Of a DNA stretch of 64,000 nucleotides, positions 2,918 through 53,905 are shown in pieces; the stretch's first letter is position 1, and every line of letters begins with the position of its first letter. The translations under genes and the position numbers were made by a program. This stretch comes from a virus. The DNA lies in IMG/VR virus record IMGVR_UViG_3300047300_001121, positions 1 through 64,000 of that record. The stretch is one strand, 5' to 3'. The notes below the pieces were generated by a model, which was not told where the DNA came from, ran no database searches, and was given only the letters and a program-made list of their open reading frames with translations.

Positions 2918-4714
2918 TTATCGAGTGGCCACGATGTAGCCGGTCTCCACTGAGCCGACGGAAACGCTGTCTGAGTCGGCACTGCCGGAGGCGTAGTCGA
3001 CCTCGGCGATGAATGACGCATTGGAGGCCTTGGCATCGCTCGAGGCGGCGTCAACTTCGGCCGCGACTTGAGCGCTCGCAGCTGCCGCCGACATGGTCAC
3101 CAGCGTTGCCTTGACCGTCGCCGAGACACCGTTGAACAAGAACATCTTGCGCAGACGGGCGTTGATTGCGACCGCAGCCAGCGCGTAGCCCTCGGAGTTC
3201 TTGACGATGTCGATGACCGCGTCGCTGGCGGAGAACGATGTCTGCAGGTCGCCATCGAGATTGACCTGGATGCGGACGTATCCGAACGCTTGCGCGAGAC
3301 CGTCGCCAGCGCCGTCGAGGCGCTTGACAATGCTGGCGCGACCCGAGGTAAGCGCCATGACATACGCTTGACCCTCCAGCGTTTTACGCAGCTCGATGGT
3401 CGTGATGACATTGACGTTGGCTGCGCCGGCGGCCGCGATGTTCTTGCTGATGGCGGCAGCACCATCGGTCACGGCAGTAGCAAGGCCCGCGCACGCCATG
3501 AACTTGGCGATGGTGGCCTGGCCAGAGGTGCTGGCCGATGCCGTGGAGCTGATGTTCAGGACCTTGGTGACGTTCGCGGATGCGACGTCAACGGACAGGG
3601 TCACCGCGCCTTCGCCGGTCACGTTTTTGGTGATGGCGGCATCGGAGGAGGTCAGCGCTGCAGCAGCTGCGGCCGCGGCAATGAACTTGTCGACCTGTGC
3701 AGCAGCCGACGTGGAGGCAACGGCGGCGGACTGCGTTGCGATCGTTTTGGCGATGGTTGCCTGGCCCGTGGTTTCGGCCGACGCGTTGCCGGCGCACTCC
3801 ATGCTCTTGACCAGGGTGGCCGAGCCGACGGTCGACGCCGTCGCAACGGCACCCACAGCGGCCAGCGGATTGATCAAGCTGGCGAGACCCGTCGACGATG
3901 CAACCGCACTGGCAGCAGCCTGGGAGACCTTGACGATGTCTGCACTGCCGGAGCTCGAGGCCGTGGCGTTGCCGCCGGCGTTGAGCACGACTTGCAGGCC
4001 AACATCAGCAACGTCGACCACAAAGGCGTCGCAATGGCCTGCGAGCGTCACCGTCTGAGCAGCGTTGGCAGTCGCGGTGGCCGAGACCTGAGCATCGGTG
4101 GCGACGGACCAGTTGACCGTGGTCGCGCCAGACGCGCTGGCCGATGCCGTGGCAGAGCCTTCGACGTTGTCGGTCTTGCCGAGTTGGCCAGAGATCGACG
4201 CCCAGGCCGAGGCCGAGCCGGCAAACGACAGGACGAAAGCCGCCGTTCCGGTTGCGCTGGCCGTGGCCGAGACGCTGGACGCGAGGTTTGCAGTGTTGCT
4301 GGGGATTGCGGAGGCCGACGCGCTTGCAGAAGCGCTGGCACTCAGGTTGTCGCTCTTGCCGACATCGCCCGCGGTCGATGCGGAGGTAGAAGCCGAGCCG
4401 GCGATGTTGGCCGCGCGCGCAAGAGCTGCGGCGACGGTTGCGCTCGTGCTGGCGGAACCAGCGAGCGGAATGCCCAGGATGACGCCGGCGTAGGTGACGA
4501 CGTACGCGCTCGAGGCCGCGGCAATGTTCTTCGACAGCGAGGCCTGCGCCACGATGCTGCCGACACCAGTGATGGCGCCAGCAACATTGCACGACAGGCC
4601 GAGCGCGCCCGAACACGTCGCAGCACTCGAGGCGGATGCTGCGAGCTCCTGCAACACACCGCCGGCGCTACCGTTGAGCGTCGCCGAGTTGAGTACAGAA
4701 GCGTTGAGCAGCAT
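2918..4714 (-). CDS. Ala/Ser/Thr-rich repetitive virion structural protein
   Basis: 598 aa with alternating-Ala repeats of roughly 25 aa, in the structural operon. Confidence 0.7.
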   Translation of the reverse strand: MLLNASVLNSATLNGSAGGVLQELAASASSAATCSGALGLSCNVAGAITGVGSIVAQASLSKNIAAASSAYVVTYAGVILGIPLAGSASTSATVAAALARAANIAGSASTSASTAGDVGKSDNLSASASASASASAIPSNTANLASSVSATASATGTAAFVLSFAGSASAWASISGQLGKTDNVEGSATASASASGATTVNWSVATDAQVSATATANAAQTVTLAGHCDAFVVDVADVGLQVVLNAGGNATASSSGSADIVKVSQAAASAVASSTGLASLINPLAAVGAVATASTVGSATLVKSMECAGNASAETTGQATIAKTIATQSAAVASTSAAAQVDKFIAAAAAAAALTSSDAAITKNVTGEGAVTLSVDVASANVTKVLNISSTASASTSGQATIAKFMACAGLATAVTDGAAAISKNIAAAGAANVNVITTIELRKTLEGQAYVMALTSGRASIVKRLDGAGDGLAQAFGYVRIQVNLDGDLQTSFSASDAVIDIVKNSEGYALAAVAINARLRKMFLFNGVSATVKATLVTMSAAAASAQVAAEVDAASSDAKASNASFIAEVDYASGSADSDSVSVGSVETGYIVATR

Positions 4715-18722: not shown

Positions 18723-18798
18723 TGGTTGCGGGAGTAGGAATTGCACCCACGCACTCGGGCGTATGAGGCCCGTGCTCTGCTGTCTGAGCTATCCCGCC
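18723..18798 (-). tRNA. tRNA with CAT anticodon (Met/fMet/Ile2 identity unresolved)
   Basis: 76-nt cloverleaf GGCGGGA TA GCTC-AGACAGCA-GAGC A CGGGC-CTCATAC-GCCCG AGTGC GTGGG-TGCAATT-CCTAC TCCCGCA A CCA. Confidence 0.85.
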
Positions 18799-34455: not shown

Positions 34456-34607
34456 TCCGCAATACTCCCAACCTTAACCAAGCCCACGCCATCGCCAAGA
34501 CAAAACAATGCCCAGCTGACGACGCTGTCGGGCACATCTAATCCAGCTTGCACCATATCGAGAAGGCGATGCGCCTCGAGCTCTTCATGATTGCAGTTGT
34601 TACGCAT
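34452..34607 (-). CDS. Hypothetical protein
   Basis: AHRLLD...WAL..LGD. Confidence 0.55.
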   Translation of the reverse strand: MRNNCNHEELEAHRLLDMVQAGLDVPDSVVSWALFCLGDGVGLVKVGSIAE

Positions 34608-35442
34608 CTCGCATCTCCTTGCGCGCCGTGGCGCGGTATGAGTTCCAGTCAAAGGGGAGCCAGCGCGCAGTCTCGGTGAGTCGGTCAAACACACGGTCGC
34701 CGATTGCCGCACGGAACTCATCCTTGCCCAGGTTGGTCATCAGGATCACCGGCCGCATCGCGCGATACCGGCGGTCCAGCACGTCAAACAAAATCGCCCG
34801 CTCGCCATCGGTGCCGTACTGCACGCCGATCTCGTCGATCACCAGCAGGGGCACACCCTGCAATCGCCCGAGCAGCTTGGCCTCCGTCATCTCACTGTCG
34901 CGGCGCCAGGTGTCACGCAACATCCGGATCAGGTCCATCAGCGTCACGTAGACACCGACATGCCTGGGCAGGATGGCTTGCAGGATGGCGCCGGCGAGAT
35001 GACTCTTGCCCGTCCCGGGTTGGCCAGACATGATCAGCGACGTGCCGATCTTCAGGTGCCGGTCGAAGTTCTCAGCGAATGCGCGGCAGACCTCGAGCGC
35101 CTTTTTCTGGCCGTCGTTTTCGGCGCGGTAGTTGTCGAGGGTCTTGCCAATGAAGCGGGGAGGGATGGCGGTCTGCGCCAGGGCCTCTTCGATTCTGGCC
35201 TTGAGCTCGTTCTGTCGCGCAACCTCAGCCTGCTTGACGGCCTCGGCCTCAGCATCCTTCGCGCATGCCGGGCAACCCATCCAGACGTCGCGAGGCGGGT
35301 TTGCGATCAGCAGCCGGTATCCGGTCGCGGTGTACTCGCCGTGCTTGTCGCAGACGCGAACGGAAGGCTCGAGGGCTTGGGTCGGCAGGGAGCCGCTGAC
35401 CACGCGCCAGGGACCGATCGAATCAGGAGAAGCTGCCGTCAT
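34600..35442 (-). CDS. DnaC/IstB-like ATPase (helicase loader)
   Basis: GQPGTGKS Walker A, LVIDE Walker B, RVFDRL. Confidence 0.9.
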   Translation of the reverse strand: MTAASPDSIGPWRVVSGSLPTQALEPSVRVCDKHGEYTATGYRLLIANPPRDVWMGCPACAKDAEAEAVKQAEVARQNELKARIEEALAQTAIPPRFIGKTLDNYRAENDGQKKALEVCRAFAENFDRHLKIGTSLIMSGQPGTGKSHLAGAILQAILPRHVGVYVTLMDLIRMLRDTWRRDSEMTEAKLLGRLQGVPLLVIDEIGVQYGTDGERAILFDVLDRRYRAMRPVILMTNLGKDEFRAAIGDRVFDRLTETARWLPFDWNSYRATARKEMRDA

Positions 35443-36172
35443 CGTTGATGCCCTCGCGGTAATTGACCTTCTGGAACCCGCTGTGGGAGCTCTTCTTCAT
35501 CGGCAGTCGCTTACCAAGCCAGGCCAGTGGATCGACCGGCTGCTCGCGGTAGCAATCGCGGATTGCCTGCACAACGACGCTGTCACCATGGTCCTTGCAC
35601 TTGCCGGCCAGGAAGGACCGGGCTGCCTTGTCGGTGTTGCCTGCGTTGACCAGGATCGGAACGCCGTAGGCGAAGATTTTGTCCTTGTCGGTCAGCTCCT
35701 GGTCAACAGCTGGCGGATCCTGTACCGGCGGCTCGCCGCCCGTTACGGTAGTAACGGAATCTCTATTCTTCTCTTCTTTAGGTAACGCCGAAGTAACGCC
35801 GGCAGCGTTACCTGTAGCGTTACCTTTTGCCTTGTTCTTGGCTACGCGCTTGGCGGTAAGCGCCCTGTTCTTGGCTGTGTTTCCGTTGTGCCGCTCGAAA
35901 TTTGGCAGATTGATGCCGTCTTCCCTGATCTCGATCCAGCCGACGGACTGCACCGCCTCACAGAAGCCAGAGGTTCCAATGATGCGATCGAGTAACGCTG
36001 AGGTAACGCCGCGAGCGTTACCATTTTCGGTGTGCTGATCGAACCAGCGCCACATCCGGAACAGCTTGCCGACCGTCAGATCAACATCATCCCAGCCCAT
36101 CTTGGCGGTGATCGCCAGGACCTCCGCCTTTTCAGGAGTGCAGCACTCCATCTTGATCCAGTCACCGGCCAT
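35423..36172 (-). CDS. Replication initiator protein
   Basis: MAGDWIKM...VGKLFRMWRWFD...PNFERHNG; upstream of the loader; internal iterons. Confidence 0.8.
   Translation of the reverse strand: MAGDWIKMECCTPEKAEVLAITAKMGWDDVDLTVGKLFRMWRWFDQHTENGNARGVTSALLDRIIGTSGFCEAVQSVGWIEIREDGINLPNFERHNGNTAKNRALTAKRVAKNKAKGNATGNAAGVTSALPKEEKNRDSVTTVTGGEPPVQDPPAVDQELTDKDKIFAYGVPILVNAGNTDKAARSFLAGKCKDHGDSVVVQAIRDCYREQPVDPLAWLGKRLPMKKSSHSGFQKVNYREGINDDGSFS
35741..36022. repeat. Probable replication origin: GTAACG iterons
   Basis: Nine GTAACG/CGTTAC hexamers; 32-bp units 35781-35812 and 35991-36022 match at 27/32; AT-rich tract 35761-35780. Confidence 0.7.
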
Positions 36173-37156: not shown

Positions 37157-37669
37157 ATGAAGGTCAAAGACCAGATCAAGGTGCGTCGCGAGCAGCTGGG
37201 CATCAGCGTCAACGAGCTCGCAAAACGTCTTGGTGTGTCTTCTCAGGCCATTCGGCACTGGGAGAACGGGCGCAGTTTCCCGGGTAAGTCGAAGACCGCT
37301 GCGCTGGAGACGGCGCTGAGCCTCAACATCGACTGGACCGAGGGCTCCAGGGCCGCCGCCAAGCGGCCGCAGATTTCGGGTCTGATTGACCCCAACGATG
37401 TCTCGCTGCTGCTGAACATAGCGCGGCTGCCGACGCCGGCAAAATCACTCATCGCCGACCTGGTCGAGATGTACGTGACGCTGGACGGACGTGCGGGCAG
37501 CTTCGCGCATCGAGGTAAAGAGAGCAGCGCAGAGGCTTTTCACGAAAAAGAATCGCAAGGAGAAAGTGCCCGTGGTACGAAAGCTACAAGAGCACCCAAG
37601 CCGGGTGCAAAAGGCAGCAAAAACGAAGAGCCCGACAAGCGTCATTCAACTCGTCGAAAGGCGGCGTGA
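37157..37669 (+). CDS. XRE-family HTH repressor without S24 peptidase domain
   Basis: IKVRREQLGISVNELAKRLGVSSQAIRHWENGRSFP. Confidence 0.85.
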   Translation: MKVKDQIKVRREQLGISVNELAKRLGVSSQAIRHWENGRSFPGKSKTAALETALSLNIDWTEGSRAAAKRPQISGLIDPNDVSLLLNIARLPTPAKSLIADLVEMYVTLDGRAGSFAHRGKESSAEAFHEKESQGESARGTKATRAPKPGAKGSKNEEPDKRHSTRRKAA

Positions 37670-37865
37670 CCCGCAGATCATCGAGCATTTGCAGGCTCTC
37701 CTGGAAGAGGCGAGGCAGGGTAAGGTGGTTGGGTTCATCGCCGCGGTCCACTACGGTGGCAAGGAGTTCGGGTACGTTGGGTCGGGTTCGATGTGCGACT
37801 GCCCAACGCTCGGGATCGCGTCGGCGCACAAGCTCGCAACAAAACTGTTGCATCACAACAAATAG
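37566..37865 (+). CDS. Hypothetical protein overlapping the repressor 3' end
   Basis: AAGGAG RBS, GTG at 37566, LQALLEEARQGKVVGF. Confidence 0.65.
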   Translation: MPVVRKLQEHPSRVQKAAKTKSPTSVIQLVERRRDPQIIEHLQALLEEARQGKVVGFIAAVHYGGKEFGYVGSGSMCDCPTLGIASAHKLATKLLHHNK

Positions 37866-37877
37866 TTGACGTATACT
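37848..37877 (+). promoter_or_regulatory. Promoter for the ncRNA array
   Basis: TTGCAT-N18-TATACT overlapped by CAACA..GTTG palindromes. Confidence 0.6.
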
Positions 37878-37883
37878 GGGAGC

Positions 37884-38720
37884 ACGAATTGCCATTCGCC
37901 ATCTCGTAGATGTGGTCCGGCGCAATGCCGGGACTCCTAGACAGCGTGCTGCAGCTGAATCTACGGCGCAGATGACACCGGGAAAGACTGGGCCATCACA
38001 CCAGCGGTAGCGCGTATTGCAAGCGCGCGGCGATCACCGCCAGGCAAGTTGCCTCCTCATCGTGCAGGGAAACCGACGGTGAAGTTTGGAGGGGGCGCCG
38101 GGAAAGCACCGGCCCGCTGATGTGATGGTGAATGCGCGAGCTGACGTGACCGAAGGAACCTCGGGCGGATAGGACAAACGGGTCGCAACCGTACCTTGTA
38201 ACGCCGCCATGCCGGAGATCAGCGCCGGCCACCATCAAAGTGCAGGCCGTATCGCGTAGCAAAGCCCGGGGATCGCAAGGTCGGCTCGGTGGCTCCGGTG
38301 AAGACAACCGCGATGACGCCCGGGAAAGACCGGGGTATGACGGCTCGTCGATGTGTCAACGATCAGGGTTCGCCGTCCTCGCCCTGATGCCGGACGATAC
38401 GTAACCGGCACCAACAAGGAAGCGGCTCAGCCAAAGCGCAGTCTCGTGAACGGGGGCTGTTAACCTGCTGAGGTCGGGCGCGCGTCACCGTGCCGGGGGC
38501 TGTATCCCGTGGGCCGCTTCCTTGTTGGTGATTGCGTTGGATAAATTCGGCTTCTCAGGTAAGGATACGCCCTGACACCAACACCCAGTGCGCGCTGGGA
38601 TACCACGCGATGACAACGTACGGAAAGACGTGCGCGGATCGCTGTAAGGCCCGCTGGGACCGACGAGAATCGGATGCGGATGGAAGTTCCGTAGGGCTCG
38701 CTTCGGCGGGCCCTTTTTTT
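37884..38720 (+). ncRNA. Tandem array of structured non-coding RNAs
   Basis: About seven stem-closed modules with recurring GATGAC..GGAAAGAC and GCCGG-loop-CCGGC hairpins; no credible ORF. Confidence 0.75.
38693..38720 (+). terminator. Intrinsic terminator closing the ncRNA array
   Basis: GGGCTCGC-TTCG-GCGGGCCC followed by T7. Confidence 0.9.
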
Positions 38721-38798
38721 GTGGTGAGTATGCAACAAACAGTTGTGACGCCAACAAAAGGTTGCGATAATGGTGACCCGAGTTTGAAGGAGGTTCAA

Positions 38799-38936
38799 AT
38801 GTTTCACTGGATGTGGTTGATCGTCACCCTTGAAGTCGGCTTCATGCTGGGTCTTCTTGTGGCCGGCCTGATTCACACGGCGCGCACGGAAGATGACTGC
38901 GAGGAGGCCTGCAGCAAGCAGTCCTTTGGTGTGTGA
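38799..38936 (+). CDS. Small membrane protein
   Basis: AAGGAGG RBS, single TM. Confidence 0.65.
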   Translation: MFHWMWLIVTLEVGFMLGLLVAGLIHTARTEDDCEEACSKQSFGV

Positions 38937-39310
38937 AGTGTCAGCACTGCGGCCATTCTGAGACCGACGTCGTCGAGTCGCGTGTCCTCATGGGCGGTGC
39001 ATACGTGCGCCGCAGACGCAGCTGCCCTGAGTGCGGCAAGACATTCTCGACCTACGAAATTGATGGCGGCATCTGGGGCACGGTGAAGAAGTGGGCCCTG
39101 GGCAGTCGCCTGCCGGCGCTCGAGAAGAAGCACAAGCTCAATCGCCGCAACGCCAAGATCGTGGCCATGATCAAAGCCGGCCACCAGTACAAAGACATCG
39201 GCAAGCAGTTCGGCATCGCCAAGACAACTGTCAGCCATATAGCCAGGCAAGCTGGCATCCCGTCGCGCAAGCGACCCAAGATCGCAACCCCATGGAGCGG
39301 CCTCGTATGA
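38933..39310 (+). CDS. NrdR-like Zn-ribbon plus HTH regulator
   Basis: MKCQHCGH...VVESR...VRRRRSCPECGKTFSTYE; C-terminal HTH. Confidence 0.8.
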   Translation: MKCQHCGHSETDVVESRVLMGGAYVRRRRSCPECGKTFSTYEIDGGIWGTVKKWALGSRLPALEKKHKLNRRNAKIVAMIKAGHQYKDIGKQFGIAKTTVSHIARQAGIPSRKRPKIATPWSGLV

Positions 39311-40993: not shown

Positions 40994-42187
40994 ATGACCG
41001 ACACGACAAACACCGCGGAAGCCGCGGTTTCTGCGCAGGAGCAAACGGCTGCACAAACCGACCTGACCCTGATCAACAACACCCTCACCGAGTTCGAGAA
41101 AGTGCAAGCCGGCCTGGCCGAGCTCAACCAGAAATACAACAACGTCGTCTTTGACGTGCGCACCACGAAGGGCATGGACGAAGCCAAGGCTGCGCGCCTG
41201 GCAATTCGTGAGCCGCGCTACGCAGTGAAGCGTGCGCTTGATGCAGCGAAGAAGCCGCTCAACGACATCAAGAAAAACATCACCGAGCGCGCCGACTACA
41301 TCACCTCTCAGTTGACCGCGCTGGAAGATCCGATCGATAAACAGATCAAAGCCGAGGAAGACCGCAAAGAAGCAGAGAAGCAGGCCAAGGTGCTGGCCGA
41401 GCAAGCCCGCGTTGCCGCGCTGCGCGAGCGCCTGGATGCCATCTCTTCGCTGCCGCTGAAGGCGTCAGGCAAGTTCTCCGCGGACATTGCCCTGGACATC
41501 CTGTACCTCGAGTCGCTACCAATCGACGAATCATTCGAGGAATACCTGCCGCATGCCAAAGCGGCCCAGGCCGAGGCGCTCGCCAAGCTGCGCGAGCTGC
41601 ATGACGCAACGCTGGCCCGTGAACAGGAGGCTGATCGCCTGGCTGCTGAGCGCGCCGAGCTGGAGGCAATGCGTGCTCAACAGGCCGCGCAGGCTGCCGA
41701 GCTCGAGCGTCTGCGCAAGGAGCAAGAAGAGGCTGCCGCACGCGCCGCTGCCGAGGCTGCCCTGGCCGCTCAGAAAGCGATCGACGAGGCCAACGCCAAA
41801 GCCAAGCGTGAGGCCGCAGAACGCGAGGCCTACCTCAAACAGCAACAGGATGCGTTTGAGGCCGAGAAGCGCGATGCCGAGGCCAAGCTCAAGGCGGAGC
41901 AGGACAGGGTGCTGGCTGAGCGCGCAGAGATTGCTCGTGCCGCCGCTGAGCTCGCAGCCAAGGAGGCTGCCGAGCAGGCCGCCCGTGAGCTCGCCGCGCG
42001 CAATGCCGAGCTGGCCAAGCAAGAGCAGGAGCGCAAAGCTCGCCACAAAAAGGCCGTCGACCGGGCTGAGCAACTGGTCGCCGTAACAATCCAGCACTTT
42101 GGGATTGAGCGCAGGCAAGCAGTTGACTTGATCATCGGCGTCGCCGAGACCATCAAATTCATCAACGAAGTAGAGGTGGCAGCATGA
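40994..42187 (+). CDS. Long coiled-coil protein (DUF1351-like) of the recombination module
   Basis: Ala/Glu-rich coiled coil, LEDPIDKQIK. Confidence 0.7.
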   Translation: MTDTTNTAEAAVSAQEQTAAQTDLTLINNTLTEFEKVQAGLAELNQKYNNVVFDVRTTKGMDEAKAARLAIREPRYAVKRALDAAKKPLNDIKKNITERADYITSQLTALEDPIDKQIKAEEDRKEAEKQAKVLAEQARVAALRERLDAISSLPLKASGKFSADIALDILYLESLPIDESFEEYLPHAKAAQAEALAKLRELHDATLAREQEADRLAAERAELEAMRAQQAAQAAELERLRKEQEEAAARAAAEAALAAQKAIDEANAKAKREAAEREAYLKQQQDAFEAEKRDAEAKLKAEQDRVLAERAEIARAAAELAAKEAAEQAARELAARNAELAKQEQERKARHKKAVDRAEQLVAVTIQHFGIERRQAVDLIIGVAETIKFINEVEVAA

Positions 42188-47109: not shown

Positions 47110-47622
47110 ATGTCATCCGTCAACAAAGCAATCATTCTCGGCCGTGCTGGCCGTGACACCGAAGTCCGCTACCTGCAAAGCGGCGCGGCCGTCGCCAACG
47201 TGAGCCTGGCGACGTCGACCAAACGCAAAGACAAGAACACCGGCGAAGTCATCGAGGACACTCAATGGCACCGCATCACCTTTTACGAGCGTCTCGCCGA
47301 GATCGCCGGCGAGTACATCCGCAAGGGCAGCCTGGTCTACGTCGAGGGCACCATCAAGTACGGCAAGTACACCGACAAAGACGGCGTCGAGCGCCCGACC
47401 ACCGACATCATCGCGAACAGCTTGCAGCTTCTGACCAGGCCTGACCAACAGCAAGGCGGCGGCCAAGACAATGCGCCGCGTCAGCAGTCCGGCAACCAGC
47501 GCCAGCAAGCCCCGCAGCAGCGCAGCCAGGGCAATGCGCCTCGCCAGCAGCAAGGCGGACAGCAGCGCGGAAACGGCAGCGGATCCGGCTTCGAGGACAT
47601 GGACGACGACATCCCGTTCTGA
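47110..47622 (+). CDS. ssb: Single-stranded DNA-binding protein
   Basis: SVNKAIILG..GRD.EVRY, TQWHRI, C-terminal DDDIPF. Confidence 0.96.
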   Translation: MSSVNKAIILGRAGRDTEVRYLQSGAAVANVSLATSTKRKDKNTGEVIEDTQWHRITFYERLAEIAGEYIRKGSLVYVEGTIKYGKYTDKDGVERPTTDIIANSLQLLTRPDQQQGGGQDNAPRQQSGNQRQQAPQQRSQGNAPRQQQGGQQRGNGSGSGFEDMDDDIPF

Positions 47623-53777: not shown

Positions 53778-53834
53778 TTCAACCCTTACGCGCCAGGGAC
53801 TTGCAGAAGAACCGCTCGTCGAGCAGGAGGATTG

Positions 53835-53905
53835 AGCTCGAGAGCGGAATCGAACCGCTGTCCCAGGTTTTGCAGACCTGTGCCTAACCACTCGGCCACT
53901 CGAGC
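53835..53905 (-). tRNA. tRNA-Cys(GCA), CCA not encoded
   Basis: GCTCGAG acceptor, GCCG-AGTGGTT-AGGC D arm, CAGGT-CTGCAAA-ACCTG, AGCGG-TTCGATT-CCGCT, U73 discriminator. Confidence 0.92.

Follow-up and report, generated by a model that had tools for sequence, protein, structure and literature searches.

We identified a predicted array of independently conserved structured RNAs, flanked by operator-like palindromes and closed by a terminator, in IMG/VR virus record IMGVR_UViG_3300047300_001121. The DNA analyzed, referred to here as the window, is the first 64 kb (64,000 nt) of this 81.4-kb record, which CheckV rates as complete. All features of the array are given on the + strand. We hold with moderate confidence that it represents a dedicated non-coding RNA operon in the immunity or early region of a temperate freshwater phage, and that its units would be processed and act in trans; the host is probably a member of the Burkholderiales. 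A first-pass annotation of the sequence had proposed such an operon and covariation among homologues as a check, and modules 1, 3, and 4 show compensatory changes on the + strand.

The array occupies the gap between g124, a small gene without a recognized family, and the next gene (37866-38798, 933 nt). This gap is non-coding. Its open reading frames (ORFs) are short, their GC content at third codon positions is 0.57-0.67 (0.67-0.81 in the real neighbouring genes), and they lack the codon-position GC asymmetry of real genes, in agreement with the earlier statement that the region holds no credible ORF. For comparison, we gathered 10 distinct syntenic IMG/VR or metagenome loci via searches with the flanking proteins, plus one isolate genome with the same gene order, the prophage of Polynucleobacter sp. 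UK-Kesae-W10 (L032). Of two scans of a genome collection, the first, with the g124 alignment, returned nothing and the second only the Polynucleobacter prophage; a metagenome scan added three short loci. A DNA-pattern search of IMG/VR with module 1 recovered the 10 known contigs and one chance match in a coding region (L028), and blastn of the whole array against GenBank phages gave no match. In every relative the gap is non-coding, and its length ranges from ~240 nt (L011-L016) through 615 nt (L006), 770 nt (L004), and 1060-1160 nt (L002 and L005) to ~1550 nt in the Polynucleobacter prophage. Because module content differs among these relatives, ORFs within the gap cannot be conserved.

The most widely distributed unit is module 3 (38124-38236), a predicted tRNA-shaped RNA with kissing loops. 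In the window, its 7-bp closing stem GAUGGUG/CACCAUC (38124-38130 with 38230-38236) is followed by an AA linker and a hairpin with the loop AGCUGA, this 5' part spanning 38124-38150, and a 3' hairpin, GCCGG-AGAUCAGCG-CCGGC (from 38211), abuts the 3' closing strand. Across the family the first hairpin is of the form GCGCA-GGCUGA-UGCGC, again after a 7-bp stem and a 2-nt linker, and the loops of the two hairpins pair GCUGA with UCAGC. In an alignment of 15 copies (A6), paired cells reach 96.7% and 9 of the 22 pairs show compensatory changes. Five of these nine belong to the closing stem, which has seven pairs; the copies had been chosen by hairpin sequence, so the covariation of the closing stem is an independent test. 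The loop-loop helix of five pairs is 100% paired in the 15 copies and includes one compensatory change (GCUCA/UGAGC, in L037). None of 500 shuffles reached any of these pairing measures. The kissing of the GCTGA and TCAGC loops, first suggested from the window alone, thus covaries in the wider family. Between the conserved hairpins the centre is variable (~30-110 nt), and the whole element measures 82-177 nt. By sequence and pairing, the predicted geometry is tRNA-like: two linker bases separate the 7-bp acceptor-like stem from a D-like arm, and beyond a variable middle a 5-bp T-like arm stacks on the acceptor, its loop in contact with that of the D-like arm. The proposal that the 3' hairpins sit like a tRNA T-arm was borne out in part, namely for modules 2 and 3, where a 5-bp hairpin abuts the 3' strand of the closing stem.

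Module 3 extends well beyond this group of phages. BLAST searches with the Polynucleobacter array against a sample of 400 Burkholderiaceae genomes found the two conserved module 3 ends, 20-130 nt apart, in 13 other genomes, 11 of which were confirmed to carry complete elements. When the window array was searched against the same 400 genomes, the only credible matches were to module 3, module 4 (in one genome, G001), and the terminator, and the rest were near noise. A covariance model of module 3 (R1), which scores 80.8 bits in the window, detected three further genomes in a 150-genome Burkholderiales sample. It also matched phage P1 (NC_005856) at full length at 69817-69918 (56.5 bits) and again at 70078-70201 (21 bits). 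The former has the same closing stem, D- and T-like hairpins, and GCUGA/UCAGC loops, with compensatory changes in all three stems. This P1 segment is not annotated as RNA and is overlapped by the GenBank minus-strand ORFs plp and upl; these, and similar small ORFs in such gaps, are probably spurious. The P1 copy has a match in 577 RefSeq Escherichia coli genomes, with no feature annotated beneath it in the listed records.

Module 3 occurs singly between unrelated genes as well as in other arrays. The Burkholderiaceae loci that carry it are often arrays themselves, in which module-3-like units alternate with degenerate tRNA-like units (L039, L040, L044, L037). The latter have T-arm-like GGTTCGAATCC boxes and acceptor-like ends, and ARAGORN does not call them. 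Module 3 often begins directly after a tRNA-like 3' end in these arrays. A recurring junction, UCACGCAUGGCGA ... UCGCCAGCCGUGAGAG, the halves of which have two possible pairing registers, joins the units. A module-3-like unit in L041 has a tRNA T-arm within its variable centre. The window copy combines the stem-linker-hairpin arrangement, the abutting hairpin with a UCAGC loop and complementary loops, and a variable centre in a phage early or array context. From these sequence comparisons, module 3 is predicted to belong to a widespread, uncatalogued family of tRNA-shaped phage RNAs, with P1 69817-69918 as the type copy.

Module 1 (37899-37992), in contrast to module 3, appears confined to one phage group. 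It opens with a 6-bp hairpin of the CCAUAU/AUGUGG type, in the window CCAUCU/AUGUGG, the 5-nt loop of which pairs ~50 nt downstream (37961-37965 in the window). Two covarying inner hairpins, an invariant unpaired ACUCCU, an invariant GCAGAUGAC, GAUGAC, and the hairpin CCGG-GAAAGA-CUGG complete the module. The loop pairing is probably a pseudoknot; the alternative would be a 12-bp long-range closing stem, and the outer stem proposed earlier (37901-37912 with 37960-37975) is present in the sequence. Identity across relatives is 70-77%. In a MAFFT alignment of 10 loci (A3), 75-78% of paired cells can pair (67% when shuffled), 9-11 pairs have changed on both sides, and the covariation score was reached by none of 500 shuffles. 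Shifting the partners by 1-3 columns lowers pairing to 32-45%. The loop pairing has swapped between GUAG/CUAC and GCAC/GUGC in two separate lineages. On the opposite strand, a U-G pair that 7 of the 9 sequences have kept would read as a C-A mismatch, which indicates that the + strand folds. The covariance model of module 1 (R2) scores 94 bits in the window and 50-107 bits in relatives; its matches are confined to the phage group, with a single borderline match among 150 Burkholderiaceae genomes. By these comparisons, module 1 is predicted to be a new conserved structured RNA specific to the phage lineage.

Module 4 (38247-38345) combines a closing stem GCCGU-AUCGCG / CGCGAU..ACGGC (38247-38257 with 38309-38314 and 38341-38345), a GNRA (GCAA) hairpin, GAUGAC, and the hairpin CCCGG-GAAAGA-CCGGG. 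It is 83% identical to positions 3905-4000 of the Polynucleobacter prophage locus, and between the two copies the GCAA hairpin shows compensatory changes (CCGGG/CUCGG versus CCAAG/CUUGG, and GAUC/GGUC versus AGUA/UACU). The Polynucleobacter copy has weak full-length similarity to the module 1 model. Module 6 (38531-38640) has the closing stem AUUGCGU/ACGCGAU (38532-38538 with 38605-38611), GAC-AA, and the hairpin CGUACG-GAAAGA-CGUGCG, and its likeness to modules 1 and 4 is limited to this terminal GAC-hairpin motif. No relatives were found for the module 6 core or for the hairpins at 38641-38692.

Modules 1, 4, and 6 therefore share one type of end, in which the closing stem is followed by GAC, one or two bases, and a 4-6-bp hairpin with the loop GAAAGA. 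The three occurrences of this motif recorded in the first-pass annotation (37971, 38312, and 38609) are all present, as are the three GCCGG-loop-CCGGC hairpins (38097, 38211, and 38389). The phage group, Polynucleobacter, and Burkholderiaceae together yielded 15 distinct copies of the GAAAGA end-hairpin, attached to five or more different module cores; across these copies the stems covary and the loop is nearly invariant. Most have GGA at the stem-loop edge, which is absent from the equivalent in L007, and some (in L044) occupy the T-arm position against the closing stem.

Module 2 (37993-38127) is cloverleaf-like, with a 14-bp closing stem CCAUCACA-C-CAGCGG / CCGCUG-A-UGUGAUGG (37993-38007 with 38113-38127). 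It folds as a five-way junction with a D-like hairpin after a 2-nt linker, two inner hairpins, and a T-like hairpin, GCCGG-GAAAGCA-CCGGC, that abuts the 3' strand of the closing stem. Its minimum free energy (MFE) is -68.8 kcal/mol (z -4.5, reached by 0 of 200 shuffles). By eye, six relatives (L007, L008, L017, L020, L032, L041) have a long closing stem of 11-17 bp at the same site, the inner half of which has changed in sequence yet is still paired, a comparison made without statistics; a version of the module was also seen by eye in a Burkholderiaceae array. No spacer separates modules 2 and 3: the closing stem of module 2 has, at the end of its 3' strand, the bases with which the 5' strand of the module 3 closing stem begins (UGAUGG/GAUGGUG, sharing GAUG at 38124-38127), and the same overlap is present in L007, L020, and L041. 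The two closing stems share bases and are therefore partly exclusive, and a cut at the start of module 3 would trim module 2.

Module 5 (38409-38530) consists of a near-perfect 21-bp closing helix (38409-38429 with 38510-38530; 21 nt at 95% in a self-BLAST) around four small hairpins, with an MFE of -72.3 kcal/mol (z -5.8, 0 of 200 shuffles). This helix is predicted to be the best RNase III-type duplex of the array. Between modules 4 and 5 lie two small hairpins (38346-38409), AUCAGGG...CCCUGAU and GCCGG-ACGAUACGUAA-CCGGC, whose folding energy is not significant (z -0.3). No relatives were found for module 5 or for these hairpins. All six outer stems listed in the earlier annotation are thus present in the sequence. 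Modules 2 and 5 are the only ones with exceptional folding energy, and the region as a whole is not significant on either strand (z -1.9 on the + strand, z -1.1 on the - strand). Since folding energy alone is weak, the structural support rests on the comparative data.

The arrangement of the modules differs strongly among relatives. In L011-L016, the gap contains module 1 and the terminator only, and in other relatives differing sets of modules are inserted between these two elements. Modules common to several relatives stand in different orders and combinations. The Polynucleobacter array, on the minus strand of NZ_JACVQB010000001.1 at about 1104360-1105910, lacks the module 1 core and carries relatives of modules 2, 3, and 4 plus several others. 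At its 3' end, on the same strand as the array, is a genuine tRNA-Gly(UCC) (4559-4632 of locus L032), and no terminator separates this tRNA from the next operator/promoter pair. The presence of a true tRNA within the array fits a co-processed RNA operon. The presence, absence, and reordering of modules exclude a single large RNA fold and point to independent units that would have been gained, lost, and shuffled like cassettes among related phages. The array is modular, as first proposed, and each module has its own closing stem. Short words repeat at module boundaries: CCATCA stands at 37994 and again at 38232, TGATGG, which is its complement, stands at 38122, and L008 has three occurrences of CATCAA.

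Two relatives, L017 (~3515-3575) and L020 (~1045-1105), contain a unit that by eye resembles a hammerhead ribozyme, with all conserved core nucleotides in the type I order. Its sequence is CUGAUGAG-GAUG-UAAC-GCAUC-C-GAA-ACC-GGAA-GGU-C/GCGC, with a stem III of 3 bp and a stem I of 4 bp. Rfam searches, with Hammerhead_1 also run on L017 itself, did not call the site. This unit is only a lead to what would be, if active, a self-cleaving unit inside an array of this kind.

The candidate promoter of the array (37848-37877) comprises TTGCAT (37848-37853), an 18-nt spacer, and TATACT (37872-37877), as described in the first-pass annotation. The -35 element agrees with the consensus at only three of six positions, and the promoter was therefore not listed by a consensus scan. 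The -10 position (TATACT, TAAACT, or TACACT) is kept in 11 of 11 loci, and the two flanking palindromes are likewise position-conserved in all relatives. The promoter owes its credibility to this setting. In the window, two operator-like palindromes, CAACAAAACTGTTG (37837-37850) and CAACAAATAGTTG (37856-37868), overlap the -35 element and the spacer. The underlying CAACAA-N3-GTTG palindrome has six sites in the window, each just 5' of a -10-like ATAAT on the + strand; the further copies are at 38733, 38752, 40930 (to 40942), and 46859 (to 46871). A looser palindrome pattern is expected 1.7 times per shuffled window. The palindromes are paired at both promoters that flank the array (37837-37868 and 38733-38764), and single ones precede a 397-aa gene at 40994 (site 40930) and position 47110 (site 46859). 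Given the pair 3' of the terminator and the single sites elsewhere, the array appears to be part of a small operator-controlled rightward regulon. The palindrome looks like the operator, or an activator site, of one phage regulator for several rightward operons; candidate binders are an XRE-type helix-turn-helix (HTH) protein (37157-37669) and an NrdR-zinc-ribbon/HTH protein (38933-39310).

Downstream of the promoter, a 5' leader hairpin (37885-37898, CGAAT-TGCC-ATTCG) is replaced in relatives by a hairpin of different sequence at the same place. The array ends with short 3' hairpins and an intrinsic terminator (38641-38720), whose stem at 38693-38714 has 9 bp, a UUCG loop, and a T7 run, matching the strong terminator reported initially. 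It is conserved in L007, L008, and L011-L016. The second palindrome pair is accompanied by a promoter-like site for the downstream operon (38733-38771; TTGTGA, a 17-nt spacer, and GATAAT).

Rfam searches with gathering and E-value thresholds, covering the window, module 1 alone, and nine related loci, identified no family for any module, and the full Rfam coverage that would have removed the novelty of the array was not found. Weak Rfam matches to sau-6072, rsmX, STnc100, and istR rest on the terminator, and one to rydB on an 18-nt hairpin. The rsmX match, which could have indicated a CsrA/RsmA sponge of the RsmX/Y/Z kind, scores 18.4 bits against a cut-off of 56. Membership in STnc100 (RF02076) was rejected with a terminator match below the gathering score of 47 bits, and membership in the C4 antisense or P4 CI RNAs with no Rfam C4 match at E-values up to 10. 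Self-cleaving ribozymes (hammerhead, twister, twister-sister, pistol, hatchet, and HDV-like) had no match in the window at the same limit, and the GAUGAC...GAAAGA units of the window are without the CUGANGA...GAAA arrangement. There was no match to GOLLD, ROOL, or other large Rfam RNAs, and relatives lack most of the region. DicF had no Rfam match in the window. The STnc100 model does match P1 at 70080-70199 (33 bits, model positions 31-147, below the cut-off), coinciding with the 21-bit R1 match, and by this indirect route STnc100 may be the nearest catalogued relative of module 3, which is not itself a member. Apart from work on STnc100 and PasD, literature searches yielded no account of the RNA family or of arrays like this one. 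The earlier expectation that single units might be known and the mixed array undescribed holds for the units, in that module 3 occurs in P1 and Burkholderiales; for the mixed array, which is unannotated, it needs qualifying, since the same kind of array is present in the P1 ban leader.

If the region is a dedicated RNA operon, transcription from the promoter, which two operator palindromes overlap, would run for 840 nt to the intrinsic terminator, and the transcript would form a string of about seven independently folding RNA modules. Stable small RNAs might be released from this precursor by RNase P, cutting at the tRNA-like frames, and by RNase III or RNase E, cutting at the closing helices of 14-21 bp. 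The conserved frames would then be processing and stability scaffolds, and the working parts would be the variable centres together with the invariant ACUCCU that module 1 leaves unpaired. With the operators unoccupied, these parts could work in trans on RNAs or proteins of the host or the phage, in the manner of STnc100, PasD, and DicF. The strand assignment is supported by the orientation of the array, which is that of tRNA-Gly in the Polynucleobacter prophage and of the P1 tRNAs.

Several observations weigh against this interpretation. ARAGORN and the Rfam tRNA model (RF00005) call no tRNA in 37848-38720, no module has a 3' CCA, and no processing site is visible in the array sequence. A search of sequencing runs for the array DNA found two freshwater metagenome DNA runs that contain the stretch, one of them possibly the source sample, and no RNA run. 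With the unpaired segment of module 1 as query, complementary sites within the window were no better than chance (best -26.7 kcal/mol versus -28 to -34 for shuffled seeds). The STnc100 model matches the window at the terminator only (38692-38720, 16.5 bits against the cut-off of 47), and the kinship of module 3 to a proven small RNA (sRNA) is a two-step chain of sub-threshold matches. For modules 5 and 6 and the small hairpins the evidence consists of folding energy or motif resemblance. Finally, kissing loops that are near-invariant from E. coli to Burkholderiales phages point to a constraint beyond pairing, which processing and trans action would not explain.

The units could be tRNA-mimic decoys or sponges, and not base-pairing regulators, that occupy a host factor for the tRNA elbow or the acceptor/T stack; the target could be RNase P or RNase Z, a tRNA-modifying enzyme, or a defence nuclease directed at tRNAs. 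The GAAAGA hairpins could instead titrate an RNA-binding protein. The tRNA-like geometry of modules 2 and 3, the almost invariant GGCUGA/UCAGC loops from P1 to Burkholderiales phages, and a GAAAGA loop that is fixed while its stems covary would all fit a conserved partner, and arrays adjoin real tRNAs and degenerate tRNA-like units. We nevertheless consider decoys unlikely: there is no conserved equivalent of the anticodon arm and no CCA end, the module 3 centre is hypervariable in length and sequence, as would be expected of a payload more than of a mimic, the array has no linked gene for defence or counter-defence, and the rsmX score is far below its cut-off. A related, equally unlikely proposal treats the array as a toolkit of tRNA-frame RNAs, in which a conserved factor would bind the frames and swappable centres would carry different activities. 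Some centres could then be new self-cleaving, ligand-binding, or protein-binding RNAs, and the units would be natural 'tRNA scaffold' cassettes, spread from E. coli to freshwater Burkholderiales phages, for host takeover or counter-defence. Somewhat less probable again is a cis-acting leader that would control the downstream operon (a 45-aa membrane protein, the NrdR-ribbon/HTH protein, and a GNAT) by antitermination of the put type, by attenuation between stems that exclude each other, or by tRNA-like punctuation. The position of the array, between g124 and this operon, is constant, the equivalent P1 array is the ban operon leader, no terminator follows the Polynucleobacter tRNA-Gly before the next promoter, and the stems of modules 2 and 3 are partly exclusive at GAUG. 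A strong conserved terminator nevertheless follows the window array, the downstream operon has its own operator pair and promoter-like site, module 3 turns up alone between unrelated genes and as a member of other arrays, and close relatives differ too much in content for the leader to be a tuned one.

Hammerhead, twister, and HDV-like ribozymes cut precursors in other phage RNA clusters, and some modules could be self-cleaving ribozymes, of classes not yet recognized, that process the precursor themselves. Modules 1 and 3 have a compact, probably pseudoknotted fold and unpaired nucleotides that do not vary, module 3 often starts right after a tRNA-like 3' end in Burkholderiaceae arrays, and two relatives carry the hammerhead-like core. 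We regard this as distinctly improbable, as the sequence offers no cleavage site, no Rfam ribozyme family matches the window or its relatives at E-values up to 10, and Hammerhead_1 does not call the site in L017. Still less credible is a function as DNA, in which the features would be replication sites or the places where small mobile cassettes recombine or insert, with the RNA folds incidental. The modules do behave as cassettes, boundary words repeat, and the array is near replication genes. However, G-U pairs are kept on one strand only, compensatory changes keep a loop-loop contact spanning 60-150 nt for which there is no DNA rationale, a promoter and a terminator bracket an array oriented as the tRNA genes are, and the region is not AT-rich (GC 0.62 versus 0.60 for the window) and has no iterons. 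The least probable of all is that the array folds and acts as a whole, as a single large ornate RNA comparable to GOLLD or ROOL, which would suit the length of ~840 nt, the phage origin, the freshwater source, and the tRNA embedded in the Polynucleobacter array. GOLLD carries embedded tRNAs. Against this, no large Rfam family matches, close relatives hold module 1 only, module order differs, and each module has its own closing stem. Strand-specific pairs, loop covariation, and module presence/absence largely exclude both the DNA-level and the one-large-RNA explanations.

The genes around the array form a typical temperate-phage early set. Leftward genes encode a PHROG 2529 protein, a T5orf172/MUG113 nuclease-like protein, a replication initiator (35423-36172), and a DnaC-like loader (34600-35442). 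The XRE-type HTH gene named above is rightward, as is g124 (37491-37865), which lies directly upstream of the array promoter in the window and is always encoded directly 5' of this promoter. The g124 protein has no Pfam or PHROG family and a conserved motif, AAVHYGG...GSGSMC..P..G; 49 homologues were found in a large protein collection, nearly all of them metagenomic. The first gene after the gap is the 45-aa membrane ORF (38799-38936), followed by the NrdR-ribbon/HTH gene and the GNAT gene in the same downstream operon. Two tRNA genes of the window, tRNA-Met(CAT) (18723-18798) and tRNA-Cys(GCA) (53834-53905), are on the - strand, far from the array.

Temperate phages are known to make a few small RNAs from their early or immunity regions, among them DicF, C4, CI, STnc100, and PasD. 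The general kind, in which small RNAs of temperate phages are released from early transcripts under repressor control, is thus already known. What appears new from the sequence comparisons is module 1, the GAC-GAAAGA end-hairpin common to unrelated modules, and the extension of the tRNA-shaped family to freshwater phages and a cultivable Polynucleobacter lysogen. The locus points to whole operons of exchangeable structured RNA modules under putative repressor control. Conservation of at least one module family extends from P1 to uncultured freshwater phages, yet neither Rfam nor genome annotation includes it. This family has copies in P1 and in a Polynucleobacter strain that can be cultivated, which makes its function directly testable, and the GAAAGA end-hairpin and the invariant kissing loops provide handles for finding the partner.

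Among known systems, the P1 ban leader (NC_005856 68651-71295) resembles the array in placing a long stretch of small structured RNAs, in P1 also tRNAs, behind an early promoter controlled by a repressor operator, putatively so in the window. It consists of the C1-controlled Pban, a dicF-like region, tRNA-Asn, tRNA-Thr, the two module-3-like RNAs, tciABC, and tRNA-Ile, so that the pair lies 3' of the Pban promoters and 5' of tciABC, tRNA-Ile, and ban. Unlike the window phage, P1 has an enteric host; its array has no terminator of its own and protein genes follow in the same operon, and modules 1, 2, 4, 5, and 6 of the window were not found there. The C4 RNAs of P1 and P7 and the CI RNA of P4 are, like the array units, small structured RNAs in phage immunity regions. 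C4 and CI are cut from a longer transcript by RNase P owing to a tRNA-like stem. They differ in being single RNAs and not arrays, and the window had no Rfam C4 match and, for the module 1 segment, no target sites. DicF, from the dicBF operon of the Qin prophage, is excised from a repressor-controlled early operon by RNase III or RNase E. It is a single unit inside a protein-coding operon. A dicF-like element heads the P1 array. The large RNAs GOLLD and ROOL are also phage-borne, sometimes lake-derived, and adjoin or contain tRNAs, but they are single conserved large folds, whereas the window array is modular and variable. A preprint describes STnc100 and PasD as related, base-pairing prophage sRNAs (10.64898/2026.05.13.724894). 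STnc100, PasD1, and PasD2 are Hfq-associated sRNAs of lambdoid and Stx prophages and, like the array, are prophage-encoded and clustered with phage sRNAs; Hfq binding, seeds, and targets are known for the enteric STnc100/PasD RNAs only. Through the coinciding match in P1, a distant common fold of STnc100 and module 3 is plausible.

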